64,000 nucleotides of DNA, taken from Candidatus Latescibacterota bacterium. Its GTDB lineage: Bacteria; Latescibacterota; UBA2968; UBA8231. The DNA lies in assembly GCA_965215195.1 (NCBI GenBank), contig CBDCDC010000002.1:1344001-1408000 (forward strand), written 5' to 3'. The notes under the pieces are model-generated. The model made no database searches. It was not told where the DNA came from and was given only the letters and a program-made list of their open reading frames with translations. Of this stretch, positions 2,176-56,074 are shown in pieces (the stretch's first letter is position 1; every line of letters starts with the position of its first letter). The position numbers and the translations under genes were made by a program.

Positions 2176-2177
2176 TC

Positions 2178-3938: not shown

Positions 3939-3941
3939 CTC

Positions 3942-5180: not shown

Positions 5181-6239
5181 ATGCGCGTCGCTAGACAGGC
5201 CGTTTGCTGCGCCCTGCTCGGCGCGTTCGTCATCAGCAACCCGCAATGCGGTACCTATCGAGCCGGACACGCCCAGCTAGCGCACACCTATCTGCGCGAC
5301 GGCCTCTATGGCCAAGCCCTCGCCGAAACCCGGCGCGCCATCCGCCAAGACGGGCCGGACGACCGCGTACTCCTCATCGCCGCCCTCGCCCGGCTGGGCC
5401 TAGACGAAGTGGATGCCGCACTAGAACTGATCGGCCAAGCCATTGCCTTGGCACCGGACAACGACGACCTGTACCGGGCCCTGCGCGACATTTGCCAAAG
5501 AGAACAGCGCTTCGCCCAAACCGAAAAGCTCCTCGCGCACCTGCGCGCAGACCACGGGCAGAGCGCGTCCCTGTGGGCGACCGAGGGCTGGCTCTACGCC
5601 CATCAGGAGCGGCCCGATGCCGCCGTAGAAGCACTGCGCCAAGCCATCCAACTCGACGGGCACCACCTCTTCGCCCACATTGAACTCGGCCGCCTCTTAA
5701 TTGCCGAGGGACGACTCGCCGCGGCCGAAACCGCGCTCGCCGCGGCCGTACACATGCAACCCGATAACCCCCAGCTCGTCCTCGCCTTGGGGGATTGCCA
5801 GCTCCGCCAAGGGCTTGCTGAGCGGGCCGCCCACACTTTTGCCCAAGCACTGGAGGCCGGGGTCATCAGTGCAGTTGACATCGCCCGCACCTACTACGAG
5901 CGCGAGCGGCCCGACCGCGCCATTGAATACTACGAGCGCGCCTTGGCCGGTGCTCCAGACGATCCGCTGATCCTCAATAACTTGGCTTGGACCTATGCAG
6001 AAGAGGGCCTGCGCCTTAGCTATGCCCTGAATCTGTCGATGCGCGCGGTCAAGCTCGACGCAGAAAGCTCGGTCTATTTGGACACCTATGCGGAATTGCT
6101 GCACCTGTTGGGGCGGCACGCCCACGCGGTGGCCATTATGCGCCAAGCCCTCGCGCTCGAGCCGACCGACGGCGAGCACCGGGCCTATCTCGAAGGCCAG
6201 ATGGCGAAATTCCGCCGTGCGCTCGCCGCACACCTGTGA
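5181..6239 (+). CDS. tetratricopeptide repeat protein, probably exported
   Basis: Repeated TPR-like helices (A...Y..AL...P.D, LNNLAW, YLDTYA); N-terminal hydrophobic stretch; abuts rodA stop. Confidence 0.8.
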   Translation: MRVARQAVCCALLGAFVISNPQCGTYRAGHAQLAHTYLRDGLYGQALAETRRAIRQDGPDDRVLLIAALARLGLDEVDAALELIGQAIALAPDNDDLYRALRDICQREQRFAQTEKLLAHLRADHGQSASLWATEGWLYAHQERPDAAVEALRQAIQLDGHHLFAHIELGRLLIAEGRLAAAETALAAAVHMQPDNPQLVLALGDCQLRQGLAERAAHTFAQALEAGVISAVDIARTYYERERPDRAIEYYERALAGAPDDPLILNNLAWTYAEEGLRLSYALNLSMRAVKLDAESSVYLDTYAELLHLLGRHAHAVAIMRQALALEPTDGEHRAYLEGQMAKFRRALAAHL

Positions 6240-9438: not shown

Positions 9439-9447
9439 GGAGGCGAC

Positions 9448-10161
9448 ATGGAGCTGGCCCTCGACAGGGTTCCCCTCCGCGTTGACGTGCTCTTTTTCGC
9501 CGCGGTCTTGGGCGTTTTGGCACTTTTGCTGTTGGCCGTGCGCACTGCTGCGCAGCGCACCAGCCAATCCGCCGACCGGTGGACGAGGTGGGCGGCGGCT
9601 GGAGCGGGGCTCTGGCTGGTATCGACCGGCCTGGCCGCGCTCTCGGGTGCGCTACGCGACTTTTCGCTACCCCTCTTTACAGCCTTGATGATCCTAACGA
9701 GCGGCGCGGCCTTTTCGCGGGTGGGGGCCGCGCTGATGGCTGCGGTCGGTCCGGTCGGCCTGATTGGCTTCCAGTTTTTCCGCATGCCGCTGGCTATGTT
9801 CCTCCAAGGGATGTACCAAGCCGGGCAGGCGCCGGTGCAGATGACCTACGAGGGGCTCAACTTCGACATCTTCGTCGGCTCAACCGCGCCGGCCATGGCT
9901 TGGCTAGTTTGGCGCGGCAAGGTGGGATCCTACGCGATATGGGCTTGGAATGCACTTGGACTGGTGCTGCTGGCCAATGCGGTCGTCGTCGCGGCCCTCT
10001 CCATGCCAACCGAGTTCCGCGTCTTCACCAACGAGCCGACGAGCGCGTTCGCGACCTACGCGCCCTACGTCTGGCTGCCAACGGTCTTGGCACCAGCCGC
10101 CCTAGTGGGTCATTTGCTGGTACTGCGCTGGCTGCTGTCGAGTTGCTCCGGGTCGAGGTAA
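9448..10161 (+). CDS. hypothetical integral membrane protein
   Basis: AGGAGG RBS; ~6 hydrophobic segments; NFDI and PYVWLP motifs. Confidence 0.65.
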   Translation: MELALDRVPLRVDVLFFAAVLGVLALLLLAVRTAAQRTSQSADRWTRWAAAGAGLWLVSTGLAALSGALRDFSLPLFTALMILTSGAAFSRVGAALMAAVGPVGLIGFQFFRMPLAMFLQGMYQAGQAPVQMTYEGLNFDIFVGSTAPAMAWLVWRGKVGSYAIWAWNALGLVLLANAVVVAALSMPTEFRVFTNEPTSAFATYAPYVWLPTVLAPAALVGHLLVLRWLLSSCSGSR

Positions 10162-11642
10162 TCCATGGCCGGATCGAGTTTCCAGCGGCACTGGTCGGGC
10201 GGCTGCACAGTGCGGCCCCACGCGGCTAGGATGGCCCGGTCGGCGCGCAGCGCGGCCAGGCGCGCAGCAATCCACTCTGGGTCCCACCCGTCCAAGACTT
10301 CGGCTTTGAGCGCGGCCAGCGTCTCTTGGTGCGCCGGATCGGCCGCTAGGTCGCAGCGCTCGCGTGGGTCGGCTCGGAGGTCGAAAAGCTGGCAGGGCTG
10401 GCCGTGGTAGTAGTTGAGCTTCCACGGCCCGCGCCGAATCATGCGCTGAAAAATGCCCTCTTGTGGGAAGGGGCCGCCGGCCCCGGCCGCGTCTTGGCAG
10501 AACTCGGAGAAAGCGACGTCGTCCCACGCGGCGTTTTGGGGATCCGCGAGCAAGGGCAGTAGGCTGCGGCCCCGCGAGCCGGGCAGGGACGGGCAGCCCA
10601 AGGCGTCGAGCATGGTCGCGTTGAGGTCGAGCGAAGAAATCACCCGGTCGCAACGAATGCCGGCGGGCAAGCGCCCGGGCCAAGCGAGTATAGCCGGCAC
10701 CTTAACCGAGTCCTCGTAAAAGGTCTGCTTCCACCACAGCCCGTGCTCGCCGACCTGCTCGCCGTGGTCCGACGTATAGAGGACGAGGGTATTTTCCTCC
10801 AAGTCGTTTTCCCGCAGCGCGGCCGCGATCTGGCCGATCAGCGCGTCCATGCGGTGGACTAGCGCCCAATAGGCAGCGCGGGCGCGGCGGGTCTCTTCCG
10901 CGCTGACTTCCTCGATCTCGCAGGCTTGACGCCAGCGTTTGATGTGGGGGTGTAGGTGGTCGCCGAAGGGTTCGGGGGTTTGCGGCGGACCCATGTTTTC
11001 ATAGTAGTAGCGATAGTCTTGCAAGCGGGCGACAAAGGGCTGGTGCGGCAGCATGAAACCAACCGAGAGCGAGAACGGCTCTGCTGCTTGGCCGGCGCGC
11101 TTGGCCACGCCGAGGCGGTTGAGAAAGTCAACGGCAGCGGCGGCCACGTCTTCGTCGTGGACTTGGTAGGCACTCTGGCCGTGGCCGGACAGGCGCAGGC
11201 TGACGCGGCTCGGCCCGGCCGTGCCGGCGAGTTGGCCGTGGTCGACGCCTTGGCCCCCGGGCTGGTTGGGGCCGTGGTCGCCAACGAGCCGCTCGGCGTA
11301 CCCGCGCAGCTGATCCGGCCCAACCGAGTGCATGCGGCCCACGAGTGCGGGGCGGTAGCCGCCCGCGCCCATGGCGTGGGCGAGGGTGGGGATGCCAGAG
11401 TCGAGGATGTGGGTATTGGTCCAGACTTGGTTGTCGCAGGGGTAGCGGCCCGAGAGCATGGACATCCGCGAGGGCACGCAAATCGGCGAGGGGCAATAGG
11501 TGTTGTCGAACACCACGCCACGGGCGGCGAGGGCATCGAGGTGGGGGGTCTCGACCAAGGGATCGCCATAGCAGCCGGCCACGTAGGGGCTGTGTTGGTC
11601 GGAGTGGATGTAAAGCAGGTTGGGGCGGGGGTCTCGGCTCAT
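10110..11642 (-). CDS. sulfatase (choline-sulfatase-like)
   Basis: PNLLYIHSDQH, CxPxR (CVPSR), GRMH, SDHGE, KQTFYEDSVKVP. Confidence 0.9.
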   Translation of the reverse strand: MSRDPRPNLLYIHSDQHSPYVAGCYGDPLVETPHLDALAARGVVFDNTYCPSPICVPSRMSMLSGRYPCDNQVWTNTHILDSGIPTLAHAMGAGGYRPALVGRMHSVGPDQLRGYAERLVGDHGPNQPGGQGVDHGQLAGTAGPSRVSLRLSGHGQSAYQVHDEDVAAAAVDFLNRLGVAKRAGQAAEPFSLSVGFMLPHQPFVARLQDYRYYYENMGPPQTPEPFGDHLHPHIKRWRQACEIEEVSAEETRRARAAYWALVHRMDALIGQIAAALRENDLEENTLVLYTSDHGEQVGEHGLWWKQTFYEDSVKVPAILAWPGRLPAGIRCDRVISSLDLNATMLDALGCPSLPGSRGRSLLPLLADPQNAAWDDVAFSEFCQDAAGAGGPFPQEGIFQRMIRRGPWKLNYYHGQPCQLFDLRADPRERCDLAADPAHQETLAALKAEVLDGWDPEWIAARLAALRADRAILAAWGRTVQPPDQCRWKLDPAMDYLDPEQLDSSQRSTSK

Positions 11643-11760
11643 AATGGACCTTGGCGGTTAGACGGTGTGCTCGACAAGGTACGCGGCTGGTTGGAGCCGA
11701 GCAAGATGGCGGGACAGGTTGTATTTTTTAACGGCGAATCGCAAGCCATGGAGATTGGAT

Positions 11761-12564
11761 ATGCAAGGTAAAAAAGCCGCCAAGCCGGCGAAGATGAAGC
11801 GGAAGATCTACGAGCGCGAATTGACCAAGTTGCACCACGAGCTGGTCAAGTTGCAGCACTGGATTAAGGACCAAGGCTTGCGGGTCGCAATCGTCTTTGA
11901 GGGGCGCGACACGGCCGGCAAGGGCGGGATCGTCAAGCGCATCACCGAGCCGCTCAATCCGCGCGGCGCACGCGTGGTGGCCTTGGGCACGCCCTCGGAC
12001 CGCGAGCGCACCCAGTGGTACTTCCAGCGCTACGTGGCCCACCTGCCAGCCGCGGGCGAGATCGCGATCTTCGACCGCAGCTGGTACAACCGCAGCGGCG
12101 TTGAGCGGGTCTTCGGCTTTTGCACCGAAGAGGAGTATTGGGAGTTTCTCCACTCGTGCCCAGAGTTTGAGCGCATGCTAGTGCGCTCGGGAATTATCCT
12201 GCTCAAGTACTGGCTCTCAGTGAGCGAGGAAGAGCAAGAAAGGCGCTTTCAGGAGCGCGCCCGGAATCCGCTCAAGCACTGGAAGCTCTCCGCTATAGAT
12301 CTCAAGTCGCGGAACATGTGGGTCGAGTACTCCAAGGCCAAAGACGAGGCGTTTTTCTACACGGACATTCCCGAAGCACCTTGGTACACGGTCGAAGCCG
12401 ACGACAAGCGCCGGGCGCGTCTCAACTGCATCGCGCACATCCTCAGCCAACTGCCCTACAAAGACGTGATGCCGCAAAAAATCGAGCTGCCGCCGCGCCC
12501 GCCTCACGGCGAGTACCAGCGTCCGCCCCACAGCAAGTTGCACTTTGTCGATGAGAAGTACTGA
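11761..12564 (+). CDS. ppk2: polyphosphate kinase 2
   Basis: EGRDTAGKGG, QWYFQRY, FDRSWYNR, DDKRRARLN. Confidence 0.95.
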   Translation: MQGKKAAKPAKMKRKIYERELTKLHHELVKLQHWIKDQGLRVAIVFEGRDTAGKGGIVKRITEPLNPRGARVVALGTPSDRERTQWYFQRYVAHLPAAGEIAIFDRSWYNRSGVERVFGFCTEEEYWEFLHSCPEFERMLVRSGIILLKYWLSVSEEEQERRFQERARNPLKHWKLSAIDLKSRNMWVEYSKAKDEAFFYTDIPEAPWYTVEADDKRRARLNCIAHILSQLPYKDVMPQKIELPPRPPHGEYQRPPHSKLHFVDEKY

Positions 12565-12610
12565 AAAGCGGTTTTGCAACTTGCCCGAGTTGCTGCGGGC
12601 GCCGTGCGGC

Positions 12611-14128
12611 ATGCCCCTCTTTATCGTCGCGGCGACATTCCTCGTAGGGGTCTGGACCTTTGACGCCAAACTTTCTCTGAGCGGCGACAACGCCGAATTC
12701 ATTACGCTGGCGCACAGTCTGGCCCAAGGCGAGGGGCTTTTGCACATCAACTCGCCCGATCCGCAGCCAGCGACCAAGTACCCGTTTGGCTTTCCCCTTT
12801 TGCTGGCACCTATGGCGTGGGCTTTCCCCGGCGATTGGGTGCCCATGAAGGCCTGGGTGCTGGTGCTCTTTGCACTGGGCATGGGGGTGCTCTACCAGTT
12901 GGCCAAGGAGCGGGTGGGCGTCTTGCCCGGCTTGGCAGTGGTGGCGCTGAGCCTTATGGCCGGCAAGAGCTATTTGACGCACGGCCCGACCGGCCCAGCC
13001 TACGGCCCGCTGCTGCTGCACTACGCACACCAAGTCATGTCCGAAGTGCCCTATCTGACTTTTTCGCTTTTGGCGCTGTGGCTCGTCGAACGGGGCGTTG
13101 GGCGCGAGCCCCTCAAGGGAAATTGGTGCCTCGTCGGCGGGTTTGCCTGCACCATTTGGGCGTACTACATCCGCACGGCTGGGATCGCGCTAGTGGCGGC
13201 TGTGGTGGTCTATTTGTTGGTCCGGCGCGATTTCCGGCGGGGTTCGCTCTTTGGCGGCGCGGCATTTGTCTGCTATCTGCCGTGGGCCTTGCGCAACCAA
13301 GCGGTGGGCGGCGGCAGCGTCTATATCAAACAGCTCTTCATGGTCAATCCCTACCACCCAGAGCGGGGCTTGCTCGACGTGGGCGGCCTTGTCGAGCGCT
13401 TCATCGGCCATACGCATGGCTATTTGACGCGGGAATTGCCCAATACCCTAGTGCCTTTTTTTAACGGCACCGAGACGATCCTGCATCCCGCCCCCTTGTT
13501 GCTGATCGCGCTCGCCGTTGCCGCGACAGCACTCTGCATCAAGCGCGGCCAACACCTGCTGCTCCTGCTCTACGCGGCCTTCTCTATAGGTATAGTGTTG
13601 CTCTGGCCCTGGCCGGGGGATCGCTTTTTGCTGCCCATTGTGCCGGTGCTCGTCTTGTTGGGGGTGTGGGCCGTTTTGCAAATCCGCGACAGACTGGCCG
13701 GGGGCCGTGTGGGCAAGTTCGCAGTATGGGGTTGCTTTCTCGCCTGCGTCAGCGGCCAAGTTGGCGGGGTCAAGCGCCTAGCCGACTACGCCGCCGCCGA
13801 CTACCCCCCGCCTTGGCGCCGCTACTACCAAGCCGGTCAATGGCTCAAAGCCAATGCGCCGGAAGACGCCATCGTGCTGTGCCGCAAGGGCTACTGGATG
13901 TACATCGCCTCGGGCCGGCGTTGCGTCGGCTTTCCCTTTGACGAGCCGGCCAAAGTGCTGGCCCACATGGAGCGCAAAAAGGTGGATTACGTCGTGCTGG
14001 AGAGCCTCGGTTTTCCGCAAACTTGGCAGTACCTGTACCCAGCCATCAAGGAATACGAGAGCCGCTTTCAGATGGTGTGGCACGACCCGGTGGTCCCGAC
14101 GTATGTACTGCGTTTTCTCCGGCCCTAG
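12611..14128 (+). CDS. GT-C superfamily (ArnT/PMT-like) membrane glycosyltransferase
   Basis: GDNAEFITLAHSLAQG, YP.GFPLLLA, MSEVPY, many TM helices, C-terminal WLKANAP..A domain; start uncertain (12545-12611). Confidence 0.7.
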   Translation: MPLFIVAATFLVGVWTFDAKLSLSGDNAEFITLAHSLAQGEGLLHINSPDPQPATKYPFGFPLLLAPMAWAFPGDWVPMKAWVLVLFALGMGVLYQLAKERVGVLPGLAVVALSLMAGKSYLTHGPTGPAYGPLLLHYAHQVMSEVPYLTFSLLALWLVERGVGREPLKGNWCLVGGFACTIWAYYIRTAGIALVAAVVVYLLVRRDFRRGSLFGGAAFVCYLPWALRNQAVGGGSVYIKQLFMVNPYHPERGLLDVGGLVERFIGHTHGYLTRELPNTLVPFFNGTETILHPAPLLLIALAVAATALCIKRGQHLLLLLYAAFSIGIVLLWPWPGDRFLLPIVPVLVLLGVWAVLQIRDRLAGGRVGKFAVWGCFLACVSGQVGGVKRLADYAAADYPPPWRRYYQAGQWLKANAPEDAIVLCRKGYWMYIASGRRCVGFPFDEPAKVLAHMERKKVDYVVLESLGFPQTWQYLYPAIKEYESRFQMVWHDPVVPTYVLRFLRP

Positions 14129-43238: not shown

Positions 43239-43320
43239 TCCCAGCGATGCTGTGGGGCTGGGCTGGACATTCTATTAGGCTCCGGAGGGCGCGGTTGAAC
43301 TAGATAGACTGAGATTGATC

Positions 43321-43977
43321 ATGCCAATCCCAGATGCCCCTAAAATTTATCACATCTTCCATGTGGACCGCCTGCCCTCCATCATTAGCGACGGCTGCCT
43401 GTGGTGCGATAAGGAAGCGGCCCGGCGATCAATCGATGGAACGATGATTGGTATGAACCATCTCAAGCAGCGGCGGTTAGGATTGCATCTGCGGAGCCAC
43501 CCCGGCCTCCGCGTTGGCGACTGTGTGCCATTTTACTTCTCCCCACGTTCGGTCATGCTCTATGTGATCTACCGAAGGGAGCATTCAGATTTGTCCTATC
43601 GGGGCGGACAGGACCCCATCATTCATCTGGAGGCAAACTTGGCGCAAACGGTTGAGTGGGCGGACGACGAGGGGTGGCGCTGGGCATTCACGAACTCGAA
43701 TGCTGGCGGCTTTTCCTCTCGTGATTGGTGCAACTGGGAGCAATTAGATCAGATCAACTGGAATGCGGTACAAGCTAAAATGTGGAGCGGTCCCGATGTT
43801 GATCCATCCGTTAAGGAACACAAGCAAGCGGAATTCCTAGTTGAGCGGCGTTTCCCATGGAAGTTGGTGAACCGCATTGGCGTCTACTCGCAACAAGTCG
43901 AAAAGCAGGTGAGTGTCGCCTTGCGGGGGGCCAGTCATCAACCTCTTGTCGAAGTTAAGAGGGAGTGGTATTACTGA
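43321..43977 (+). CDS. darT: DarT DNA ADP-ribosyltransferase toxin (DUF4433)
   Basis: IYHIFHVDRL.SI, IG...LK.RR, VPFYF.PRS.MLY, FTNSNA, QAEFLV, terminal WYY. Confidence 0.9.
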   Translation: MPIPDAPKIYHIFHVDRLPSIISDGCLWCDKEAARRSIDGTMIGMNHLKQRRLGLHLRSHPGLRVGDCVPFYFSPRSVMLYVIYRREHSDLSYRGGQDPIIHLEANLAQTVEWADDEGWRWAFTNSNAGGFSSRDWCNWEQLDQINWNAVQAKMWSGPDVDPSVKEHKQAEFLVERRFPWKLVNRIGVYSQQVEKQVSVALRGASHQPLVEVKREWYY

Positions 43978-43994
43978 ACAGAAAGGAGAACACT

Positions 43995-44498
43995 ATGATC
44001 GAATACAAGACCGGCGACCTCATGGCCGAAGAGGTCGAAGCCTTGGTCAACACTGTCAACTGCGTCGGGGTTATGGGACGCGGTATCGCACTTCAGTTTA
44101 AGAAGGAGTTCCCGGAAAACTTCAAAGTCTATGCCAACGCATGCAGGCGTAAGGACGTTAAGTTAGGCCAGATGTTCGTGTTCGAGAGAGATGATATGTT
44201 TTCTCCGCAGCCGCGGTACATCATCAACTTTCCGACCAAGCGGCACTGGCGCAACAAGAGCAGGATGGAGGATATCGAGTCCGGGTTGGCGTCGCTTGTA
44301 ACGGAGATTCGGGAACGCGGCATCCGCTCAATTGCCATCCCAGCACTCGGTAGTGGTTTGGGCGGGTTGAACTGGTACGCAGTACGCACTCGCATGCAAA
44401 AGGCTCTAACAGAACTGGACGACGTGAAGATCGTCATATTCGAGCCGGACAGTGGGCCGGTCACACCCAAGCCAACCGTTCAAGCGACATTCCAATAA
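43995..44498 (+). CDS. darG: DarG-type macrodomain antitoxin (macrodomain only)
   Basis: GDL, ALVNTVNCVGVMGRGIA.QFK, INFPTKRHWR, SIAIPALGSGLGGL.W; ends at 167 aa. Confidence 0.85.
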   Translation: MIEYKTGDLMAEEVEALVNTVNCVGVMGRGIALQFKKEFPENFKVYANACRRKDVKLGQMFVFERDDMFSPQPRYIINFPTKRHWRNKSRMEDIESGLASLVTEIRERGIRSIAIPALGSGLGGLNWYAVRTRMQKALTELDDVKIVIFEPDSGPVTPKPTVQATFQ

Positions 44499-47145: not shown

Positions 47146-47678
47146 TGGTAAAAGGGCCGGTATTTCTGACGGGGTTTATGGGCGTGGGCAAGACCCAAGT
47201 CGGGCGCATTCTGGCGCGGCAGCTAGGGCGTCGCTTCTTGGACACCGACCGGATGATTGAACAGCGCGCCGGCAAGCCCATTGCGGCGATTTTCGCCGAC
47301 GAAGGCGAGGCGCACTTCCGCCAGCTAGAGCGCGCCTGCGTCCTCGAAACCTGCCAGTGCCCGGATGCCGTAGTGGCCTTGGGCGGCGGGGCGATCACCC
47401 GCGCCGACAATGTCGCGGCCGTGCGCCGCGCCGGCGTCTTGGTCTGTCTCAAGGCCGATGTGGATACGATTTTCGCCCGCGTCAGGCGCCGCGTCCACCG
47501 GCCCTTGCTCGCCGGGTTGGGGCCGCAGGCCCAGCGCGCCAAGATAGAGTCCCTGCTCCGCGAGCGCACTCCGTTCTACGAGCAAGCCCACCTCGAGCTG
47601 TACACCACGCAGGCACAGACGCCTGAGGACACGGCGAGGCAACTCCGCAACTTACTGGAGAGCTATGCAAAGAATTGA
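47145..47678 (+). CDS. aroK: shikimate kinase
   Basis: GFMGVGKT, D.D..IE, GE.HFR..E, ALGGG, RPLL, R.PFY. Confidence 0.93.
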   Translation: MVKGPVFLTGFMGVGKTQVGRILARQLGRRFLDTDRMIEQRAGKPIAAIFADEGEAHFRQLERACVLETCQCPDAVVALGGGAITRADNVAAVRRAGVLVCLKADVDTIFARVRRRVHRPLLAGLGPQAQRAKIESLLRERTPFYEQAHLELYTTQAQTPEDTARQLRNLLESYAKN

Positions 47679-48774
47679 CTTAGACCTCCCGGGGGCTGCA
47701 TACCCCATCTTCGTCGGCCACGACATCCTCGGGGAACTGGGGCCGCGTTGCCGCGACTTGGCCTTGGGCCGGCAGGTCGCGCTGGTGACCGACGAGCTCG
47801 TGGCGGCGCACTACCTACAGCCTGCGGCCGCCAGCTTGCGCCGGGCCGGATTCGAGGTGTTGGAGATCGTCTATGCCGGGGGCGAGAGTGCCAAGACCTT
47901 GGGCGGGGCCGAAGGCATTTTCGCGCAGATGATCGAGGCCGAGTTCGACCGCGGCGCTTGGGTCGTAGCCCTCGGCGGGGGCGTGGTCGGCGACATGGCC
48001 GGCTTTGTGGCCTCCACCTATTTGCGCGGCGTGCCCTACGTGCAGGTGCCTACGACCATCGTCGCGCAGGTGGATTCGAGCATTGGCGGCAAGACCGGGG
48101 TCAACCACGCGCTGGGCAAAAACCTAATCGGCACCTTTCACCAGCCGCGCTTGGTCTTGGCCGACACGACCGCCCTGCACTCGCTGCCGCGGTCGGAGCG
48201 GGTCGCGGGCATGGCCGAGGTGGTCAAGCACGGGCTGATCCGCGACGCCGCGCTCTTCGCCTTTTTGGAGGAGCACTTGGAGGCGGTCGTGGACATGGCG
48301 CTGGCACCGGCGACCTTGGACTGGCTCATTGGCCGCAATGTCGAGATCAAGGCCGCGGTGGTGGCCGCCGACGAAAAGGAGCAGGGCTTGCGGGCCATCC
48401 TCAATTACGGGCACACCATTGGGCACGCGATTGAGGCCGCCACGGACTACAGCCGCTACCGGCACGGGGAAGCGGTGATTTTGGGCTCAATCGCCGCGGG
48501 CGAAATCGCCTGCCGCGAGGGATTTTGGTCCTCCGCAGAAAGGCAGCGGCAGGACGCGTTGCTGGAGAGATTGGGGGTGCCTCCGGGATTGGCCGCGGTC
48601 GAGGCGGAGCGGATTTTGGCCTGTGCTTATGCCGACAAGAAGCGGGTGGATGGGCGGTTGCGGTTCGTGCTGGGTCGGCGGATTGGGGAGGTGGAGGTCG
48701 TGGAGGGAATAACCGATGCGACAGTGCGCGCAGCCATTGCATACGCGCAGCAGTACTCTGGGCGCGACCCATGA
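47665..48774 (+). CDS. aroB: 3-dehydroquinate synthase
   Basis: GE..K, LGGGVVGD.AGF, PTT, DSSIGGKTG.N, KNLIG.FHQP, LNYGHT.GHAIE, HGEAV. Confidence 0.96.
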   Translation: MQRIDLDLPGAAYPIFVGHDILGELGPRCRDLALGRQVALVTDELVAAHYLQPAAASLRRAGFEVLEIVYAGGESAKTLGGAEGIFAQMIEAEFDRGAWVVALGGGVVGDMAGFVASTYLRGVPYVQVPTTIVAQVDSSIGGKTGVNHALGKNLIGTFHQPRLVLADTTALHSLPRSERVAGMAEVVKHGLIRDAALFAFLEEHLEAVVDMALAPATLDWLIGRNVEIKAAVVAADEKEQGLRAILNYGHTIGHAIEAATDYSRYRHGEAVILGSIAAGEIACREGFWSSAERQRQDALLERLGVPPGLAAVEAERILACAYADKKRVDGRLRFVLGRRIGEVEVVEGITDATVRAAIAYAQQYSGRDP

Positions 48775-48918
48775 TTCGGGCGTTACTCAAACGTTGTGGA
48801 GAACGCCATCGCCCAACGCACGGACATCCACTCGCTTACAAACGAGACGATCTTTACGCGCTCTGCATTTACCAAATCGCCGTTCTCTAACCTACTTAAT
48901 CCAAAGGGCGACAACACC

Positions 48919-51114
48919 ATGCAAGACCGTGGCATTATCGCATACAAAGACAAGCTAGATCAGGTCATCGATCGCTATGGCGATTTTCTCGGCGATGAGG
49001 CGGCAAACCTCGCCCTAGAACACGGCATCCCCGCGGCCAAGGAATTGCAAGCAAACCTAACGGCCATTGAAGATGAAAACCGCCTACTCAAGATCGGCAT
49101 TGTGGGACGAGTCAAATCTGGAAAATCCTCCCTGCTAAACGCCCTGCTCTTCGCGGGGGAAAGCATCCTGCCCAAGGCCGCAACTCCCATGACAGCGTCC
49201 TTAACGACGCTTTCTTACGGGGAGAGCCAAACGGCCGAAGTGGAGTTTTTCACCCAAGAGGACTTGAGACATATTGAGGGCAAGTACAATGAATATAAGA
49301 CGCGAGAAGAGCGGCTCTACGAGAAATTTCTAACCGAAGAACAAGCAAAAGAGACTCGCTCGCGTAGGTCCCCAGAAGAGCGAGCGAGAAGTAAGGCCAA
49401 GCGGGCGATGGGGGATGGCAACGACGCATTGATCGCCGCTTATGAGCAATACGATAAAATCGAAAAATCCGGAATCAACACCAGGGCGCTCGAGAAAAAG
49501 ACCGTTCTCAAGTTTGCAAGGCTCGCCGCTTTGCGTGGTCAGTTGGATGATTACGTCGGCGCGACAGGCCGTTACATGCCCGTTACCAAAAGCGTCAACA
49601 TTCGGCTGCCGCAAGAGAATCTGCGGGATATAGAAATTGTGGACACGCCGGGTATTAACGATCCGGTTCAGTCGCGTGAGGCGCGAACCCAACAGCATTT
49701 GAGTCAATGCGATGTGGTGTTGATCGTCAGTCCCGCCGGTCAGTTTATGAGTTCGGCGGATCTGAACCTGATGGATCGCATTGCTGGGAAGGAAGGCATC
49801 CGCGAGCTATACGTGGTGGCGTCGCAAGCCGATACGCAGCTTTCCAGCAATTTGAAGGATGAAAACAACGGCGACTTGGATCGCGTGTTGGAGTGCCTCA
49901 CTACGGTGCTTGGCAGGCATCTGGAGGCGATCATTGGCGATTTGAAGAAGCGCAATCCCGAAGTGGGCACTACCTACGATCAGTTGCTCGATCAAGGTAA
50001 GATCATTCACACTGCGGGCATTTGCGAAAGTCTGAAGCAGAGTTTTGAGCAGAAAAATGCGTGGGATGCGGGGATGCAGCATGCTTGGGACTGTTTGTTG
50101 GCCGAGTATGGAGATTATTTCTCCGCTGAAGATGCGGAGTTGTCGCGCATCAATCTGGAGAAGTTGTCCAACATACCGCGCATTTGGGAAATCGTCGCCA
50201 ATGTACGCGAACGAAAGGACACCATAATCAAGGACCGCCAAACAGAGTACATCGGCGCAAAACGCCAGTCCCTACACGAGTTAAAAGACGGCTTGCTCAA
50301 GTATGCCAACCATCGGCATACTCAGATTGAGAATATGGAGCTTGAAAGCTTTAAGAAGCGGCGCGACCATTTGCACAAGCGTCTGGAAAGGACGGCTTAT
50401 CTGATTAGGGAGGCGCACGCGGAATCGGTTGATCAGGTTAAAAAAGACCTGAATGACAATTTTAGAAAGGAACTAGCAATTCGCGATCGGCAGGTCCAAG
50501 AGGATATCGCTGGAGCGAAAGGCGAAGAATATGAAAGTCATCCAACAGGTTTATTTAAGAGAGATAAGACAAGACGTATTGAGACTATCTACACGAATGC
50601 TGTCGTTTGGAGCTTGACGGAATCTGCTGACAAAATGATAGAGGAGATTGCCGAGAAAACAGACGCCCAAAAGGACCAGTGGCGGGGTAAACTCAATAAG
50701 GAGCTAACTAAAGTTTTGCAGCAAGAATTGGGCGATGAGGATGTAGAAGCATGGAGAGTCCGCGAGATTATCAGAAATGCCGTCAATTCCATATCCATCT
50801 CACCATTCAAACACAATACCCAATTGCCAGAGAAGCTGAGTTCTCAGGGTGTGTTGAGGGATAAGGACGCGAGGAATTTTTTTGATAAGGCATGCGACTA
50901 TTCTAAGGAATCTTGTAGCGACCTTCGCAAGAAGGTGAATCGGTACATCAAAGATCTCACCGCAGAGATGGGCAGAGTTGAGTTAGACAAGTTGCTGCTG
51001 GAAAAATTCAACGAGGAATTCGCTTCCCTTGAGGAGTCGATTGCCAAGAAGGAAATGGAGTTGAAGCGAATCGCCCGCATTAGGGAAGAACTGAAGGAGA
51101 TTGATAATGGCTAA
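48919..51114 (+). CDS. bacterial dynamin-like GTPase (LeoA-like)
   Basis: G1 GRVKSGKS, G2 PMT, G3 DTPG.ND, long helical C-terminus; start ATG 48919 (alternative GTG 48796). Confidence 0.82.
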   Translation: MQDRGIIAYKDKLDQVIDRYGDFLGDEAANLALEHGIPAAKELQANLTAIEDENRLLKIGIVGRVKSGKSSLLNALLFAGESILPKAATPMTASLTTLSYGESQTAEVEFFTQEDLRHIEGKYNEYKTREERLYEKFLTEEQAKETRSRRSPEERARSKAKRAMGDGNDALIAAYEQYDKIEKSGINTRALEKKTVLKFARLAALRGQLDDYVGATGRYMPVTKSVNIRLPQENLRDIEIVDTPGINDPVQSREARTQQHLSQCDVVLIVSPAGQFMSSADLNLMDRIAGKEGIRELYVVASQADTQLSSNLKDENNGDLDRVLECLTTVLGRHLEAIIGDLKKRNPEVGTTYDQLLDQGKIIHTAGICESLKQSFEQKNAWDAGMQHAWDCLLAEYGDYFSAEDAELSRINLEKLSNIPRIWEIVANVRERKDTIIKDRQTEYIGAKRQSLHELKDGLLKYANHRHTQIENMELESFKKRRDHLHKRLERTAYLIREAHAESVDQVKKDLNDNFRKELAIRDRQVQEDIAGAKGEEYESHPTGLFKRDKTRRIETIYTNAVVWSLTESADKMIEEIAEKTDAQKDQWRGKLNKELTKVLQQELGDEDVEAWRVREIIRNAVNSISISPFKHNTQLPEKLSSQGVLRDKDARNFFDKACDYSKESCSDLRKKVNRYIKDLTAEMGRVELDKLLLEKFNEEFASLEESIAKKEMELKRIARIREELKEIDNG

Positions 51115-53419
51115 GAGTACGCTGCATTCAGCCGCGGATCATCGCAGTTTTGATTCGTTGCGTTCAGAGCACGAGGAGTTGCAAAAAAAATACAAACTGG
51201 TCTCCGATCTGCTCACGGCCAAACCCAACAAACACGTAGAATTCGAGAAGTTCGAGCGCCTCTTGAACGAGGAGTTTCGGGCATTTGCTGATGCGGAGTC
51301 GTCGCTGGCCGAGGAAGCGGCCGCGGTGCAGCGCCTCGAAAAACTGGCCGAGCGGCTGAAAGAACTGGTGGTCTTTCCGCATCTTTTCGCCAAGCGATCC
51401 ATTGCCATTGGGGGCGGGTTCAGCAGCGGCAAGTCGGCGTTTGTCAACAGTTTTATCGAGGGACATGACCATTTGCTGCCGGAGCGAGTCGAACCGGCCA
51501 CGGCCATTCCTTCCTTCGTCATCGCCAATTCGGAACTGGTGATCAAGGGCTTTTCCCGCACCGGCGATACGGTGGATATCGACCCGACCCTGTACTCCCA
51601 ATTATCCCACAATTTTATCGATACCTTTTCTTTTAATCTCAAGGACATCATGCCTTCCATCACAGTAGAGGTTCCTTTGCGCGACAACTTGTTTGAAAAC
51701 CTCTGCTTGATCGATACGCCGGGCTACAATCCAGGGGGCCGGAATGAAGACCGCACTACGGCGGCTGATTTTCTCAAGGATCGAGATGCGCTCATCTGGA
51801 TTATTGGGTTGGATTCTACTGGCACGGTTCCCAAGGACGATTTGGAGTTTCTGGAGGATTTGGAATTGGGGTCTTTGCCGTTTTACGTGGTTTTGAACAA
51901 GGCGGACAGAAGACCCCGCAGTGAATTGGAGAAGGTGCTGAGCGAGGTGCAGGATACGCTTGCCGACGCGGATTTCGACCCTCTTGGAATCTGCGTGTAT
52001 AATTCCCGCCGCGGTGAGCAATTCTTAGATGATGGGATGTCGTTGGCGGACTTTTTCCGCGAGCAAAACCAACCCAAAGAAGCGAACACGGGCTTGAAGC
52101 AGGAGATTGAGGGCGTCTTTGAGATGTATGAGAATGCCATTCGCAAAGACGAAAGAACGGCCAAGTGGATGACAAACGAACTCAACGCTATCGACTTTCA
52201 TCTTTCTGAGTTGAGTCCTGACGATGCGGACGTTTTAGGGGAAAAAGTCAGCAAGCTCATCGACTCGCAAAAGAGAGATTTCGCGCCGATCAAGAAACAG
52301 ATGAGCGAGATCCGGCAAAAGATGCTCAGTGCCGTTGATGAAATTTTCCGGTCGCTGAACCTTGCCAAGCCGGAACGAACAGCGCGGGAAGCGAAAGGCG
52401 AGAGTGAGGAAAGAGAATTTATTGCGAAGATAGGTCGCAAGCCATCGCCGAATATCGTGTACAACAAAGGAGTGACCGACCTCCATCACGCTGGGCATCT
52501 GAATCTGCCTGTACTCGCTCAATCCCTGCTGGATCAGGGAGCCGACATCGAGGCAAAGGCCACACTACACGCCAGTATCTCGCCGCACCTTACGACACTT
52601 TTGGATAAAATGGGAATGGGAGACGATGAGTTTGAGCTAGAAGACAGTACGCCGCTGCACATTGCGGCGTTTGCAAATGCGCGGGAGACCGCCGAAGTCT
52701 TGATCCAAAACGGAGCCAACATCAACGCCAAAGACAACGAGGGCCGGACGCCGCTGCACTGGACGGCGGTGGGGAATGCGCGGGAGACCGCCGAAGTCTT
52801 GATCCAAAACAGAACCAACATCAACGACAAGGACAACGAGGGCGGGACGCCGCTGCACGCTGCGGCGTTTGCAAATGCGCGGGAGACCGCCGAAGCCTTG
52901 ATCCAAAACGGAGCCAACATCAACGCCAAAGCCAACAAGGGCTGGACGCCGCTGTACGCTGCGGCGTTTGCAAATGCGCGGGAGACCGCCGAAGTCTTGA
53001 TCCAAAACAGAGCCAATATCAACGCCAAGGACAACGAGGGCACTACACCGCTGCACGCTGCGGCGTTGGGGAATGCGCGGGAGACCGCCGAAGCCTTGAT
53101 CCAAAACAGAGCCGATGTCTATGCCAAAGCCAAGCATGGCGTTACGCCGCTGCACTATGCGGCGTTGGAGGATGCTTCGTCGGTGGCGGCGGTGTTGCTT
53201 GAGCAGGGAGCCGACATCAACGCCAAAGCCAAGCATGGCGGGACGCCGCTGCATGCTGCGGCGTTTGCAAATGCGCGGAAGACCGCCGAAGTCTTGATCC
53301 AAAACGGAGCCAACATCAACGCCAAGGACAACGAGGGCACTACACCGCTGCACGATGCGAAGGAGAATGGAGCTCGTGAAACAGCAGAGTTATTGATCCG
53401 CTATGGTGGCCAACGTTAG
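51107..53419 (+). CDS. dynamin-like GTPase (LeoBC-like) fused to C-terminal ankyrin repeats
   Basis: G1 GGFSSGKS, G2 PAT, G3 DTPGYN, G4 NKAD; ~9 ankyrin repeats (TPLH.AA...A.ETAE.LIQNGANINAKD); 8-nt overlap with upstream gene. Confidence 0.85.
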   Translation: MAKSTLHSAADHRSFDSLRSEHEELQKKYKLVSDLLTAKPNKHVEFEKFERLLNEEFRAFADAESSLAEEAAAVQRLEKLAERLKELVVFPHLFAKRSIAIGGGFSSGKSAFVNSFIEGHDHLLPERVEPATAIPSFVIANSELVIKGFSRTGDTVDIDPTLYSQLSHNFIDTFSFNLKDIMPSITVEVPLRDNLFENLCLIDTPGYNPGGRNEDRTTAADFLKDRDALIWIIGLDSTGTVPKDDLEFLEDLELGSLPFYVVLNKADRRPRSELEKVLSEVQDTLADADFDPLGICVYNSRRGEQFLDDGMSLADFFREQNQPKEANTGLKQEIEGVFEMYENAIRKDERTAKWMTNELNAIDFHLSELSPDDADVLGEKVSKLIDSQKRDFAPIKKQMSEIRQKMLSAVDEIFRSLNLAKPERTAREAKGESEEREFIAKIGRKPSPNIVYNKGVTDLHHAGHLNLPVLAQSLLDQGADIEAKATLHASISPHLTTLLDKMGMGDDEFELEDSTPLHIAAFANARETAEVLIQNGANINAKDNEGRTPLHWTAVGNARETAEVLIQNRTNINDKDNEGGTPLHAAAFANARETAEALIQNGANINAKANKGWTPLYAAAFANARETAEVLIQNRANINAKDNEGTTPLHAAALGNARETAEALIQNRADVYAKAKHGVTPLHYAALEDASSVAAVLLEQGADINAKAKHGGTPLHAAAFANARKTAEVLIQNGANINAKDNEGTTPLHDAKENGARETAELLIRYGGQR
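52649..53400 (+). repeat. 99-bp tandem repeat x8 (ankyrin)
   Basis: Units start at 52649, 52748, 52847, 52946, 53045, 53144, 53243, 53342. Confidence 0.95.
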
Positions 53420-53440
53420 CCGTCCACACACCTCATCCAA

Positions 53441-54760
53441 ATGAACGAAAACCAGCCTCACAAAGTTCACCTAGTCAGCTTGGGGTGCCCGAAAAACACG
53501 GTCGATTCCGAGCGGATGCTGGGGCTTTTGCAGGGCCATGCCTATCAGATGACGGACGCGCCGGAAGAAGCGGACGTGGTGGTGGTCAATACCTGCGGCT
53601 TTATCGAACCGGCCAAAGAGGAGTCCCTCGCCGCGATTATGGACGCGCATCGGCTCAAGCAAGAAGGTCAATGCGAGGGCGTGATCGTCACGGGGTGTCT
53701 ATCGACGCGCTACTACGAAGAGCTAGCGCAGGAGTTGGTGGAGGCCGACAAGCTGTTGACGATCGCCGACGAGGCCGACATCGTCCACCACGTTGACGAC
53801 GTGTTGGGCGTCCAGCGGCCCGATTACTTAGCTAGTTTGCCGCGCACCTCGCTGACGCCCAAGCACTGGGCATACCTGCGCATATCCGACGGCTGCGATC
53901 ACCAATGCGCCTTTTGCGCCATTCCCGCCATTCGCGGGCGGCACAAAAGCGAGCCGCTCGAACAGCTCGTGGCCGAGGCCGAGCGGCTGGCCGCGGAAGG
54001 GGTGCGGGAGCTGGTCTTGGTCTCGCAGGATTCAGTGCGCTACGGGGCCGATCTGTACGGCCGGCCCCAGCTCGTGCGCCTTTTGCAAGCCCTCGCCGAG
54101 GTGGAGGGCATTGAGTGGATGCGCTTGATGTACACCTATCCGGCGTTTTGGACCGAGGAATTGATCGACTTCTACGCCACATGCGACAAAATGTGCGGGT
54201 ACATCGACATGCCGCTACAGCACATTGCCGACCCGGTGCTCAAGCGCATGAAGCGGGCGACGACGCGCCAAAAGACGCTCGATCTGCTGGCGCGACTGCG
54301 GGAGCGGCTGCCCGGGGCCGGGCTGCGCTCGACGTTCATCGTCGGCTTTCCCGGGGAGACCGACGCCGATTTTGCCGCCTTACTGGAGTTTGTGGCCGAG
54401 ACGCGCTTCGACTACGCGACCGGCTTTCTCTACTCGCCGGAAGATGGGACCACAGCCTATGAGCTCGGCGATCCGGTCGCCGAGGAAATCAAGCAGGAGC
54501 GCTACAGCCGCCTGACGCAACTGCAAGAGCGCGTGGGCACGGAGAAAAACGACGCCCTAGTCGGTACGCGGCAGCAGGTCTTGGTCGATGCGCACGACGG
54601 GGCGGTGTGCTATGGGCGGATGGAGCGCGACGCCCCGGAAATCGACGGCCAAGTCATCATCGCCGAGGGCATGCCGCCGGTGGGTTCTTTCGTCGCAGTG
54701 GAGATCACGGCCGCCGCGCCCTACGAGCTGACCGCTAAGGTAGTGGGAGAGCCGCGTTGA
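53441..54760 (+). CDS. rimO: ribosomal protein S12 methylthiotransferase RimO
   Basis: SLGCPKN.VDSE, NTCGFI..AKEES, CDHQCAFC.IP, DAPEIDG. Confidence 0.95.
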   Translation: MNENQPHKVHLVSLGCPKNTVDSERMLGLLQGHAYQMTDAPEEADVVVVNTCGFIEPAKEESLAAIMDAHRLKQEGQCEGVIVTGCLSTRYYEELAQELVEADKLLTIADEADIVHHVDDVLGVQRPDYLASLPRTSLTPKHWAYLRISDGCDHQCAFCAIPAIRGRHKSEPLEQLVAEAERLAAEGVRELVLVSQDSVRYGADLYGRPQLVRLLQALAEVEGIEWMRLMYTYPAFWTEELIDFYATCDKMCGYIDMPLQHIADPVLKRMKRATTRQKTLDLLARLRERLPGAGLRSTFIVGFPGETDADFAALLEFVAETRFDYATGFLYSPEDGTTAYELGDPVAEEIKQERYSRLTQLQERVGTEKNDALVGTRQQVLVDAHDGAVCYGRMERDAPEIDGQVIIAEGMPPVGSFVAVEITAAAPYELTAKVVGEPR

Positions 54761-55074
54761 ACAAGGCAAAGCCACGCACCATCGCCGTGGATGACCGGGC
54801 CGGCGAATTGGTCATCGCGTGGAGCAATGGCCGCGAGAGCCGCTACGCCTTGGAGGGCTTGCGACGCGAGTGTCCCTGCGCCCACTGCCGGGAATTGCGC
54901 GACGCGAGCGAGGGCGGTTTGACGCTCTTACAGCCCGAGGCCGCGTCGGCTACGGCCGAAGTGCGGGGAGTTAGCTACGTCGGCCGCTACGGCATTCGCA
55001 TTGAATGGGCCGACGGGCACGATCACGGCATTTATACATTTGAGTTTTTTCGCGCTATCGACGCGGGCGGATGA
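54757..55074 (+). CDS. DUF971 / GBBH-like N-terminal domain protein
   Basis: LR.ECPCAHC, VGRYGIRIEW.DGH..GIY. Confidence 0.85.
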   Translation: MNKAKPRTIAVDDRAGELVIAWSNGRESRYALEGLRRECPCAHCRELRDASEGGLTLLQPEAASATAEVRGVSYVGRYGIRIEWADGHDHGIYTFEFFRAIDAGG

Positions 55075-55100
55075 GGCAAGGCGGGCTTGGGGAAGCTACC

Positions 55101-55496
55101 CTACCGCAACCACGCCTCAAGATATTCCTTTACGGCACCGCTTACATGAGGCGAATCGCTTATCTCTTTCCGCAGCCGATGCACTACTTTGAAAGGGAGA
55201 TTCCCAACTATGGCATACAGGTTAAGGAATTTCGGATTAATGGAAAACTCAATTTTCTTAGGATTGACTAACCCCACCGCGGTTTGATCTATATAGCGAC
55301 AATGATGGCTGAAGTCAGGCCATTCACTAGCTGAGACGATGATGTGGGGAGTATCTTGGGGAGCGACTCTATTGCGATTGCGGTAAACAACCGCAACCGC
55401 GACTTCTGGGGCCTCTGAGGGAAATGGCGTCGTAAGAACGACTAGCTCTGGATGAGAGGAACCTTTCGGAGAAAGACATAGCCCCTCCCAGTTCAT
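55101..55496 (-). CDS. candidate toxin paired with Panacea antitoxin (possibly PemK/MazF-like)
   Basis: 131 aa; ATGA overlap with Panacea gene; lower GC than neighbours. Confidence 0.55.
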   Translation of the reverse strand: MNWEGLCLSPKGSSHPELVVLTTPFPSEAPEVAVAVVYRNRNRVAPQDTPHIIVSASEWPDFSHHCRYIDQTAVGLVNPKKIEFSINPKFLNLYAIVGNLPFKVVHRLRKEISDSPHVSGAVKEYLEAWLR

Positions 55497-56074
55497 TTGA
55501 GGAGATCCAAGAGAGCCTGTCCTTTGAGACGGCGCAAGGTGAAGTTAATTTCCTCTTGTGATTTGCCTAGTGCGCTAAGAATATCGCGTACGGATAGGGG
55601 TATTCTGCGCTCTCCATACCGATCTTCATCGGGGTTTTGGTATTCCGGCAGATCGTGGCTCTCATCGCGCAGTTGCTGCCAAGATTTGCTCCCATGCTCG
55701 GCAAAAATCTCATCCGCTAGTGCTATTTCAAATTCGGATAGCTCATCCACAGCAGCAGGCTTAATCAGCTTGATGTGGTACTGGTCGCTCGGTGCAATGT
55801 GCTGCGACCAAACCCCCTCGTCTCTAGTAGAGACCCCTCTGGCTAAGTCCATAGTTGCACTGACCACAGGTCCATGGGGGAGAGAAAAATAAATGTCTGT
55901 CGAGACGGCTACTCCACGGCGATCAAAGGCTGCTCTATCAATGAGATAGATCAATTTGATCAGTGAAAGATGCGGATACGGCCTATTCACTTTACTGAGC
56001 AGGTACGCGGCAAGCTGAGTAGCTTTCCTCTCGTTAAAATAAGGACGGGTTGGGACCTGTTCGGATTGCATCAT
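55493..56074 (-). CDS. Panacea (SocA/DUF4065) domain antitoxin
   Basis: FNERKATQLAAYLL, LIKLIYL.DR, LPHGPV, LSEFEI, SHDLPEY. Confidence 0.82.
   Translation of the reverse strand: MMQSEQVPTRPYFNERKATQLAAYLLSKVNRPYPHLSLIKLIYLIDRAAFDRRGVAVSTDIYFSLPHGPVVSATMDLARGVSTRDEGVWSQHIAPSDQYHIKLIKPAAVDELSEFEIALADEIFAEHGSKSWQQLRDESHDLPEYQNPDEDRYGERRIPLSVRDILSALGKSQEEINFTLRRLKGQALLDLLK

Follow-up and report, generated by a model that had tools for sequence, protein, structure and literature searches.

A dynX-deleted copy of a widespread three-gene dynamin-like operon in a Latescibacterota genome, with ankyrin repeats as the putative recognition module of its third subunit

A stretch of 64,000 nucleotides (nt) from a Candidatus Latescibacterota bacterium (GenBank assembly GCA_965215195.1, contig CBDCDC010000002.1, positions 1,344,001 to 1,408,000 of the forward strand; hereafter the window, numbered from its first letter) was analyzed around two adjacent genes for dynamin-like GTPases, dyn1 and dyn2, the second of which runs on into ankyrin repeats. 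Bacterial dynamins are mostly known as membrane-acting single proteins or pairs, and Eleos is to our knowledge the one dynamin-based defence system named so far, its mechanism being unknown. The window locus is read here, with high confidence, as a dynX-deleted copy of a widespread three-gene dynamin-like operon, dynX-dyn1-dyn2 (a naming introduced in this analysis), whose third subunit bears a swappable recognition module, in this case nine ankyrin repeats.

Two plus-strand open reading frames (ORFs; 48796-51114 and 51101-53419) lie between aroB and rimO (Table 1), with likely starts at ATG 48919 for dyn1 (731 amino acids, aa) and ATG 51107 for dyn2 (770 aa). The dyn1 start was placed there because the alignment with the paralogue opens at residue 42 of the long ORF and the orthologues align from this ATG. 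Both genes are intact, giving ~4.5 kb of open reading frame, and GAAGGAG lies 8 nt 5' of ATG 51107, which together with the 8-nt gene overlap suggests translational coupling of dyn1 and dyn2. The locus is compositionally foreign: guanine-cytosine content (GC) is 0.47-0.55 in the dynamin-like genes versus 0.60-0.67 in the flanks, and GC at third codon positions (GC3) is 0.59-0.70 versus 0.75-0.83. In relatives, aroB and rimO form a tight pair with 10-62 nt between aligned parts; in the window, gaps of 145 nt on the aroB side and 21 nt on the rimO side were measured, and rimO may now be transcribed through the dynamin genes. A promoter and terminator scan of 47500-55200 returned fewer sites than shuffled sequences, with no signal standing out, and no RNA run was present among the 16 runs listed for the locus. 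The wider neighbours are aroE, argS and aroB upstream, and rimO (89-94% identical to relatives) and a GBBH-like gene downstream.

Table 1. Features of the window, related clusters elsewhere in the genome (C1 and C2, contigs) and state of the aroB-rimO site in relatives (G, genomes; L, loci)
Feature	Position	Strand	Evidence or content
DarT	43315-43977	+	PADLOC E 1.2e-65
DarG	43965-44498	+	PADLOC E 2.7e-78
aroB (3-dehydroquinate synthase), upstream island border	47665-48774	+	Pfam DHQ_synthase 1.8e-44
dynX remnant	48771-48867	+	blastn to orthologous trio in G004; comparison with L029 dynX
dyn1, full-length bacterial dynamin-like protein	48919-51114	+	Pfam, AlphaFold2 (AF2) model, Foldseek
dyn1/dyn2 overlap	51107-51114	+	8 nt, ATGGCTAA, dyn1 stop over dyn2 start
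dyn2 GTPase part	51107-52432	+	Pfam Dynamin_N, AF2, VIA-align
dyn2 ankyrin array	52478-53419	+	nine repeats, then stop codon
rimO, downstream island border	53441-54760	+	Pfam Radical_SAM, UPF0004, TRAM; 21 nt after dyn2 stop
SocA/Panacea-domain pair	55101-56074	-	193 aa, Pfam 5.9e-15; overlapping 131-aa ORF without family match
Second copy trio	C1:544250-550996	+	dyn1 51%, dyn2 45% identical to window genes
Other trio, different family	C2:2432623-2439781	-	weak LeoA/LeoBC similarity
Other trio, different family	C1:610717-616456	-	weak LeoA/LeoBC similarity
aroB-rimO site, L029			intact trio
aroB-rimO site, G004 (L016)			trio, dyn1 cut by ~930-bp IS5-like element
aroB-rimO site, L031			dyn1-dyn2 only, upstream junction other than in window
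aroB-rimO site, G001, G002, G009, G010			empty, aroB directly beside rimO
aroB-rimO site, G005			no aroB within the 1.5 kb examined

The dyn1 product was matched by Pfam Dynamin_N at E 1.9e-23 (83.8 bits; cut-off 27). Its AF2 model (predicted local distance difference test, pLDDT, 84.0) comprises N-terminal helices, a GTPase domain at ~57-400 with a three-helix insertion at residues 113-184, and a helical stalk at 406-730 with a beta-hairpin at 534-558. Foldseek matches were headed by SynDLP (7zw6, 1.9e-15), Cj-DLP (5oxf_A, 4.1e-13), IniA (2.3e-12) and BDLP1 (4.1e-12), the top matches spanning 725-876 aligned columns.

The dyn2 product carries a divergent dynamin-type GTPase (G motifs GGGFSSGKS, DTPG and NKAD), matched by Dynamin_N at E 6.5e-9 (36.5 bits; same cut-off). 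Its AF2 model (pLDDT 88.7) is composed of three N-terminal helices (2-95), the GTPase (97-320), a four-helix bundle (326-442), a short linker and the ankyrin repeats. A Foldseek search with the whole model returned ankyrin matches; in a wide VIA-align comparison, the one non-ankyrin row was IniA (6j72_A), to which residues 50-407 were aligned at Z 21.4 (root-mean-square deviation 8.5, 313 aligned). A profile of the dyn2 family found Cj-DLP1 first (3.1e-7), followed by EngB, Der and Era. The P-loop, DTPG and (N/S)(K/Q)AD are kept; in 56 sequences per protein, the motif residues show little or no variation (G1, G3 and G4 of dyn1 being invariant). Both products thus have the G1-G4 GTPase and the neck and trunk of the dynamin superfamily, though dyn2 is without the long trunk, and a membrane paddle or transmembrane tip was recognized in neither, as judged by hydropathy: no hydrophobic segment was detected in 19-residue windows (Kyte-Doolittle), the peak means being 1.15 in dyn1 and 1.16 in dyn2. 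A complex prediction for dyn1 1-430 with dyn2 1-450 gave no answer (score 0.02), and nothing was drawn from the score.

The ankyrin array consists of a degenerate first repeat with an insertion and eight 33-aa TPL(H/Y) repeats, was matched by Pfam Ank at E 2.4e-54 (178.7 bits; cut-off 21.1), and appears in the DNA as a tandem of period 99 (7.1 copies, 80% matches). In the model it forms nine helix pairs at pLDDT 95-98, and its fold matches are AnkB, Espin and DARPin at Z 31-33; the tandem 33-residue helix-turn-helix units with TPLH that mark ankyrin repeat proteins are present in dyn2. Names of Legionella Dot/Icm ankyrin effectors (AnkY, AnkH etc., NCBIfam) were considered and rejected, the best match reaching 153.9 bits against an equivalog cut-off of 600; judged by these scores, the match is generic ankyrin similarity. 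An earlier note on this DNA had described two overlapping genes of ~730-770 aa with dynamin-type G motifs, their GC below that of the flanking core genes aroB and rimO, and an in-frame continuation of the second into ~9 ankyrin repeats. All of this agrees with the Pfam matches above cut-off in both proteins, the measured composition, and the repeat listing and model.

The GTPase-ankyrin fusion is no assembly error. It is considered genuine because it is shared by the paralogous dyn2 on the genome's other contig, by 63 of 120 listed dyn2 homologues (from 276 found with the dyn2 GTPase part; repeats were scored with our own repeat profile and precomputed Pfam lists), and by contigs from three studies. 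Contigs of four runs from these studies covered 48700-52660 without indel, one of them (49238-52542) bridging the dyn1/dyn2 boundary as well as that between GTPase and ankyrin repeats; the misassembly at the latter for which the earlier note had asked a check was thus not found in independent contigs. These contigs are short and break up within the array, and the repeat number of nine rests on the window assembly. In contigs of three runs (X1, X5 and X6), a joint 49264->52500 was also observed, at which 3235 bases are skipped and the short sides measure 27-43 nt; the two places have no sequence in common, and the joint would break the dyn2 frame. The joint is unexplained and is not taken as a variant; its source may be the assembly graph or a different organism.

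Loci of dyn2 relatives were collected from one genome per species (184 relatives, 80 loci kept), and 65 of these had at least 4.3 kb of upstream DNA. The order dynX-dyn1-dyn2 was found in 63 of the 65, in eight phyla (Latescibacterota, Thermodesulfobacteriota, Campylobacterota, Pseudomonadota, Spirochaetota, Planctomycetota, Fibrobacterota and Bacteroidota); of the remaining two loci, L031 holds dyn1-dyn2 only and the other belongs to Campylobacter. In the window, dyn1 and dyn2 are adjacent and in this order, and an upstream dynX with its hydrophobic hairpin is missing. When the orthologous trio in G004 was compared by blastn, 48771-48809 matched the dynX start region and 48826-48867 the final ~50 bp of dynX. 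A frame beginning at GTG 48796 joins ~5 head codons to ~22 tail codons of dynX and is open into dyn1; its translation was compared with the dynX of L029, the tail being matched by tblastn at E 1.1e-5 and the head by eye. Because head and tail codons remain joined in one frame running into dyn1, dynX was removed from the window almost exactly, by an in-frame deletion.

The hydrophobic segment of dynX (~residues 450-470) reached a peak hydropathy of 1.96-2.36 in three of four proteins tested and 1.36 in that of H. pylori, and the 19-residue peaks of dyn1 and dyn2 were at most 1.42 across the proteins tested. The sole predicted membrane element of the machine is accordingly the one encoded by dynX, and it is missing in the window. 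The earlier note had spoken of a pair forming a membrane-remodelling module. Its pair stands as far as two adjacent dynamin-like genes are concerned, but the native unit has three genes, of which dynX was deleted here; membrane remodelling was not borne out for the window copy, in which both proteins are without a hydrophobic segment and dynX is lost. Departures from the plain trio were noted at other loci. Two dynX genes stand in tandem in L035 (G018, 2037-5616), and two dyn2-like genes in L081, L084, L088, L089 and L100. The gene after the trio encodes multiple zinc ribbons fused to an EF-Tu-like GTPase in L077 (Treponema, 9446-11044; GTP_EFTU 4.4e-57) and zinc ribbons alone in L096 (Paludibacteraceae, 9574-13004).

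The C-terminal domain swaps for which a survey had been suggested were found among the dyn2 homologues, whose C-termini are formed by Ank, Ank with FGE-sulfatase, Ank with SWIB, two to four helix-hairpin-helix (HHH_3) domains, FGE-sulfatase alone (one Fibrobacteraceae locus) or no module. Forms without a module are ~500 aa long and basal. In two long relatives, WG repeats were pointed to by atlas look-ups (scores 0.90-0.91), which are taken as a lead only. A FastTree tree of 118 GTPase parts (P0088, P0103 and P0119 of the 120 left out for short coverage) was resolved into one clade of 17 short forms and one of 101 fused forms. On this tree the Ank label must change 6 times, and starred branches make at least 4 of these changes necessary. 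In the top 150 representatives, ankyrin repeats were present in 7, and 31 had at least 120 residues past the family match. The exchanged modules are binding modules, not enzymes, and the dyn2 C-terminus is, to judge from this distribution, an evolutionary swap site for them.

Sequence change is faster in the array than in the GTPase part: orthologues with 78-82% identity in the GTPase part have 59-60% in the ankyrin part. Where orthologues are at least 75% identical, they have anywhere between 2 and 14 repeats, although collapse during assembly may account for part of such differences among metagenome proteins. Across 46 distinct repeats, the most variable positions were 12, 9, 16, 4, 13 and 2, a set that includes the classical target-contact positions of designed ankyrin libraries.

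Four dynamin clusters occur in the genome, namely three trios and the window pair, with 11 dynamin-like genes between them, all of low GC3 (0.50-0.66). The second copy has a paralogous dynX (C1:544250-545983, 577 aa) in front of dyn1, and its dyn2 continues into ankyrin repeats and then an FGE-sulfatase domain. The two other trios, which are different families, gave up to 68 bits with the LeoA/LeoBC profiles; hydrophobic or glycine-zipper segments occur in some of their proteins. At the aroB-rimO site itself, the window genes are 75-77% (dyn1) and 78-83% (dyn2) identical to those of L029, L030 and L031. The site was found empty in four of five tested relatives, which were drawn from 21 same-genus genomes without a match. 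Synonymous divergence (dS) between orthologues is 0.37-0.62, equal to that of rimO, and the island therefore co-diverged with these genomes. The IS5-like element in G004 (L016, 12321-13249) contains a 206-aa DDE transposase-like ORF and splits dyn1 after ~residue 47; a 75%-identical copy is present in the window genome at C2:1121597-1122532.

Within the phylum, 11 of 168 genomes (the window genome counted) have the dyn2 family; among 30 other genomes of the genus, 5 have it. When clustered at 50% identity, the family comprises 818 clusters for E<=1e-30 and 1539 for E<=1e-10. Matches to dyn1 were obtained on 15 plasmid records. In a P. aeruginosa megaplasmid, three genes for a 'dynamin family protein' and a WYL gene are surrounded by integrases, transposases (IS256 and IS30), a DEAD/DEAH-box helicase and an EH-signature protein. 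A Calditerrivibrio plasmid has the trio next to IS200/IS605, and on an E. coli IncF plasmid (NZ_CP148279.1, L111, 5192-12780) it ends in a short third gene of 405 aa. By its distribution and company, the dynX-dyn1-dyn2 operon is accessory and mobile. In L111, an 829-aa CFI-box-CTERM domain-containing protein follows the third gene with an 8-nt overlap, and the recognition or effector module may there be a separate fourth gene.

Neighbouring genes were scanned for known defence functions in 139 ORFs, up to three per side of the trio, at 26 loci picked by hand for long flanks and distinct genera. PADLOC models were matched for WYL (7), IetA (3), mad2 (2), the RT-NERD helicase (2), PglZ (1), BrxL (1) and a type I methyltransferase (1), a tally made without a matched control and with a collection that holds many generic models. 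Genes of HTH-WYL-WCX architecture stand directly upstream in L043, L059, L084 and L103 (Pfam), with three more in the same homology groups. BrxR-type WYL regulators are reported in PMC9122601 to lie beside known defence systems in 48% of cases. In the window, a DarT-DarG pair of the toxin-antitoxin defence type is located 4.4 kb upstream of dyn1 in a low-GC patch (0.54) just before aroE. Its DarG is 177 aa long and consists solely of the macro domain, whereas the profile has 329 positions. A further low-GC patch (0.50), 1.7 kb downstream of dyn2, holds the Panacea-domain pair, which had no PADLOC match and is probably a PanA-type toxin-antitoxin. The neighbourhood suggests a defence role for the operon, and between the two roles that the earlier note had offered, defence and host interface, this context favours defence.

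A conflict or defence role for the operon, in which the dyn2 module would recognize a target, the GTPases would assemble and dynX would act on the membrane, is accordingly put forward tentatively, belief and doubt being nearly balanced. The operon would be an accessory, horizontally moving conflict system directed against phages or mobile elements. Within it, dynX would anchor the assembly at the membrane through its hydrophobic hairpin, dyn1 would be the long-stalk mechanochemical subunit, and dyn2 the recognition subunit, its target being a protein for ankyrin and DNA for helix-hairpin-helix modules. Target binding would then trigger or localize GTP-dependent assembly, and the window copy would either work with the paralogous dynX on C1 or be decaying.

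Besides the uncontrolled tally and its generic models, several observations weigh against this reading. No WYL gene precedes the operon in Latescibacterota, the second copy being preceded by a GFO/IDH/MocA oxidoreductase; the window island is set within a row of housekeeping genes; and no relative was present among 19 pattern matches to viral contigs of IMG/VR. The template modelling scores (TM-scores) of the fold matches are low (0.26-0.37), although low scores are expected because these are hinged multi-domain proteins. Many holders are host-associated (Helicobacter, Campylobacter, Neisseria and Treponema), and related proteins, cj0411 and LeoA among them, have been connected with colonisation or with the release of vesicles (PMC6104087 among the sources). 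Finally, with dynX absent from the window and dyn1 cut by an insertion sequence (IS) in G004, the locus may be losing function.

The last of these points leads to the reading of the window copy as a functionless decaying remnant, kept open by chance or for read-through from aroB to rimO. A third genome is also without dynX, with another upstream junction, and the ratio of nonsynonymous to synonymous divergence (dN/dS) is 0.29-0.34 for dyn1 and 0.16-0.25 for dyn2 at similar dS, some two to three times that of rimO (0.10-0.13). These ratios are nevertheless far below 1, ~4.5 kb is still open across both genes with all GTPase motif residues present, the deletion was in frame and spared the start region, and a paralogous dynX exists in the genome, so that simple decay is judged unlikely. 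A symbiont host-interface factor, whose array would bind a host (e.g. sponge) protein while the GTPases remodel membranes or vesicles there, is considered unlikely to a similar degree. It would account for the host-associated holders and the colonisation phenotypes, the genome has 41 Ank_2 matches, and ankyrin proteins are described in PMC12993501 as typical eukaryote-like proteins of sponge symbionts, Latescibacterota included. Yet neither protein has a signal-peptide-like hydrophobic N-terminal stretch, the ankyrin position is taken by DNA-binding HHH_3 or FGE-sulfatase in sister proteins, free-living bacteria and a hot-spring plasmid have the trio as well, and the membrane subunit is absent from the window copy. 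Housekeeping membrane maintenance (repair, tethering or vesicles, as for DynA, IniA and Cj-DLP1/2) with the ankyrin array as a scaffold would fit the membrane-active best fold matches (SynDLP, Cj-DLP1/2, IniA, BDLP1) and the dynX hairpin, which sits where BDLP paddles do. It is quite improbable given a sporadic distribution in the phylum, foreign composition, carriage on plasmids and beside insertion sequences and integrases, and window proteins without a hydrophobic segment; four dynamin clusters in one genome likewise fit accessory modules better than one core function.

The earlier note had set the locus beside LeoA/LeoBC (Eleos) pairs, and an Eleos system whose LeoBC subunit gained an ankyrin sensor would explain why two dynamin-like genes, both with an intact P-loop, stand side by side. 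By definition, Eleos comprises LeoA and LeoBC, dynamin-like genes that follow each other directly and have homology to the Leo operon, and it is described as protective against jumbo phages (10.1101/2022.05.11.491447, 10.1101/2022.12.12.520048); the deleted dynX type does match LeoA and LeoBC weakly, at 31-42 bits. With PADLOC 2.0.0, however, LeoBC was matched on dyn2 only, at 13.8 bits (E 0.0059), and LeoA at E<=0.01 on neither dyn1 nor dyn2. Intact trios from Pseudomonas, H. pylori and Campylobacterales gave no more than 52.5 bits to the two profiles, and LeoA (4aur) ranks 40th among the dyn1 Foldseek matches (4.4e-6). The window shows neither a profile match on both genes nor a native two-gene operon; membership was ruled out on these profiles and on the native three-gene unit, and an Eleos derivative is regarded as highly improbable.

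A stronger form of the defence reading is that dynX-dyn1-dyn2 is a new widespread immune system of three dynamin-like GTPases, often under a BrxR-like WYL repressor, in which dyn2 would be a sensor arm comparable to Mx or nucleotide-binding leucine-rich repeat (NLR) proteins and its exchangeable module (ankyrin, WG, FGE-sulfatase, helix-hairpin-helix or SWIB) would choose the invader protein or DNA. This is held to be possible but rather doubtful. If it is true, the rapid change of the ankyrin arrays in Latescibacterota would reflect an arms race between these bacteria and their phages. A mobile three-GTPase operon would extend the present picture of bacterial dynamins, with the membrane element in one subunit and a swappable recognition module in another. 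Such a layout would offer a handle on how dynamin machines are aimed at a target and would have a parallel in the antiviral dynamins of eukaryotes, Mx for example. In symbiont genomics, some of the 'eukaryote-like' ankyrin proteins that are tallied as factors of host interaction may belong to intracellular conflict systems.

Neither a dynamin-ankyrin fusion nor a three-dynamin defence operon was found described in the literature searched (the Millman and Picton supplementary tables lay outside the search). The earlier note's remark that no such system was described holds to that extent, but the fusion is common in relatives, being carried by 63 of the 120 listed clusters. PMC8935386 notes 'three dynamin-like proteins' on a genomic island of H. 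pylori and, drawing an analogy to LeoA, interprets this island as one of virulence. The H. pylori loci of our set have the same dynX-dyn1-dyn2 order at 30-33% identity, although the published island is possibly another locus; the H. pylori dyn2 proteins scanned had no ankyrin module, one having a PP-binding domain. By analogy, RNase L also joins a repeat-array ligand sensor to an effector, and its ankyrin domain aligned to the array at Z 25-27; it has no homology to dyn2 outside the repeats, and any long ankyrin array gives such matches.

Eleos resembles dynX-dyn1-dyn2 in its adjacent dynamin-like GTPase genes, accessory islands, intact P-loops and weak profile similarity to dynX. It differs in having two genes rather than three, dyn2 being short with a swappable C-terminal module. 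The alignment of dyn1 with SynDLP, IniA and Nostoc BDLP1 takes in the GTPase, the neck and the trunk, hence the entire protein (Foldseek 1.9e-15 to 1e-10), at 13-16% sequence identity. Unlike these, dyn1 and dyn2 are without a paddle or transmembrane tip by hydropathy, and the dyn2 bundle is short. The best solved sequence relative of dyn1 is Cj-DLP1/Cj-DLP2 (PDB 5owv/5oxf; 1.6e-15 with a single sequence, 8.8e-20 with a profile). Its two subunits are described in PMC6104087 as products of operon-paired genes that form a hetero-oligomer, tether membranes and have lipid-binding tips. Unlike in that two-gene unit, a lipid-binding element was recognized by hydropathy in neither dyn1 nor dyn2, and a third, hydrophobic subunit is found here in the intact operons, together with an ankyrin array.

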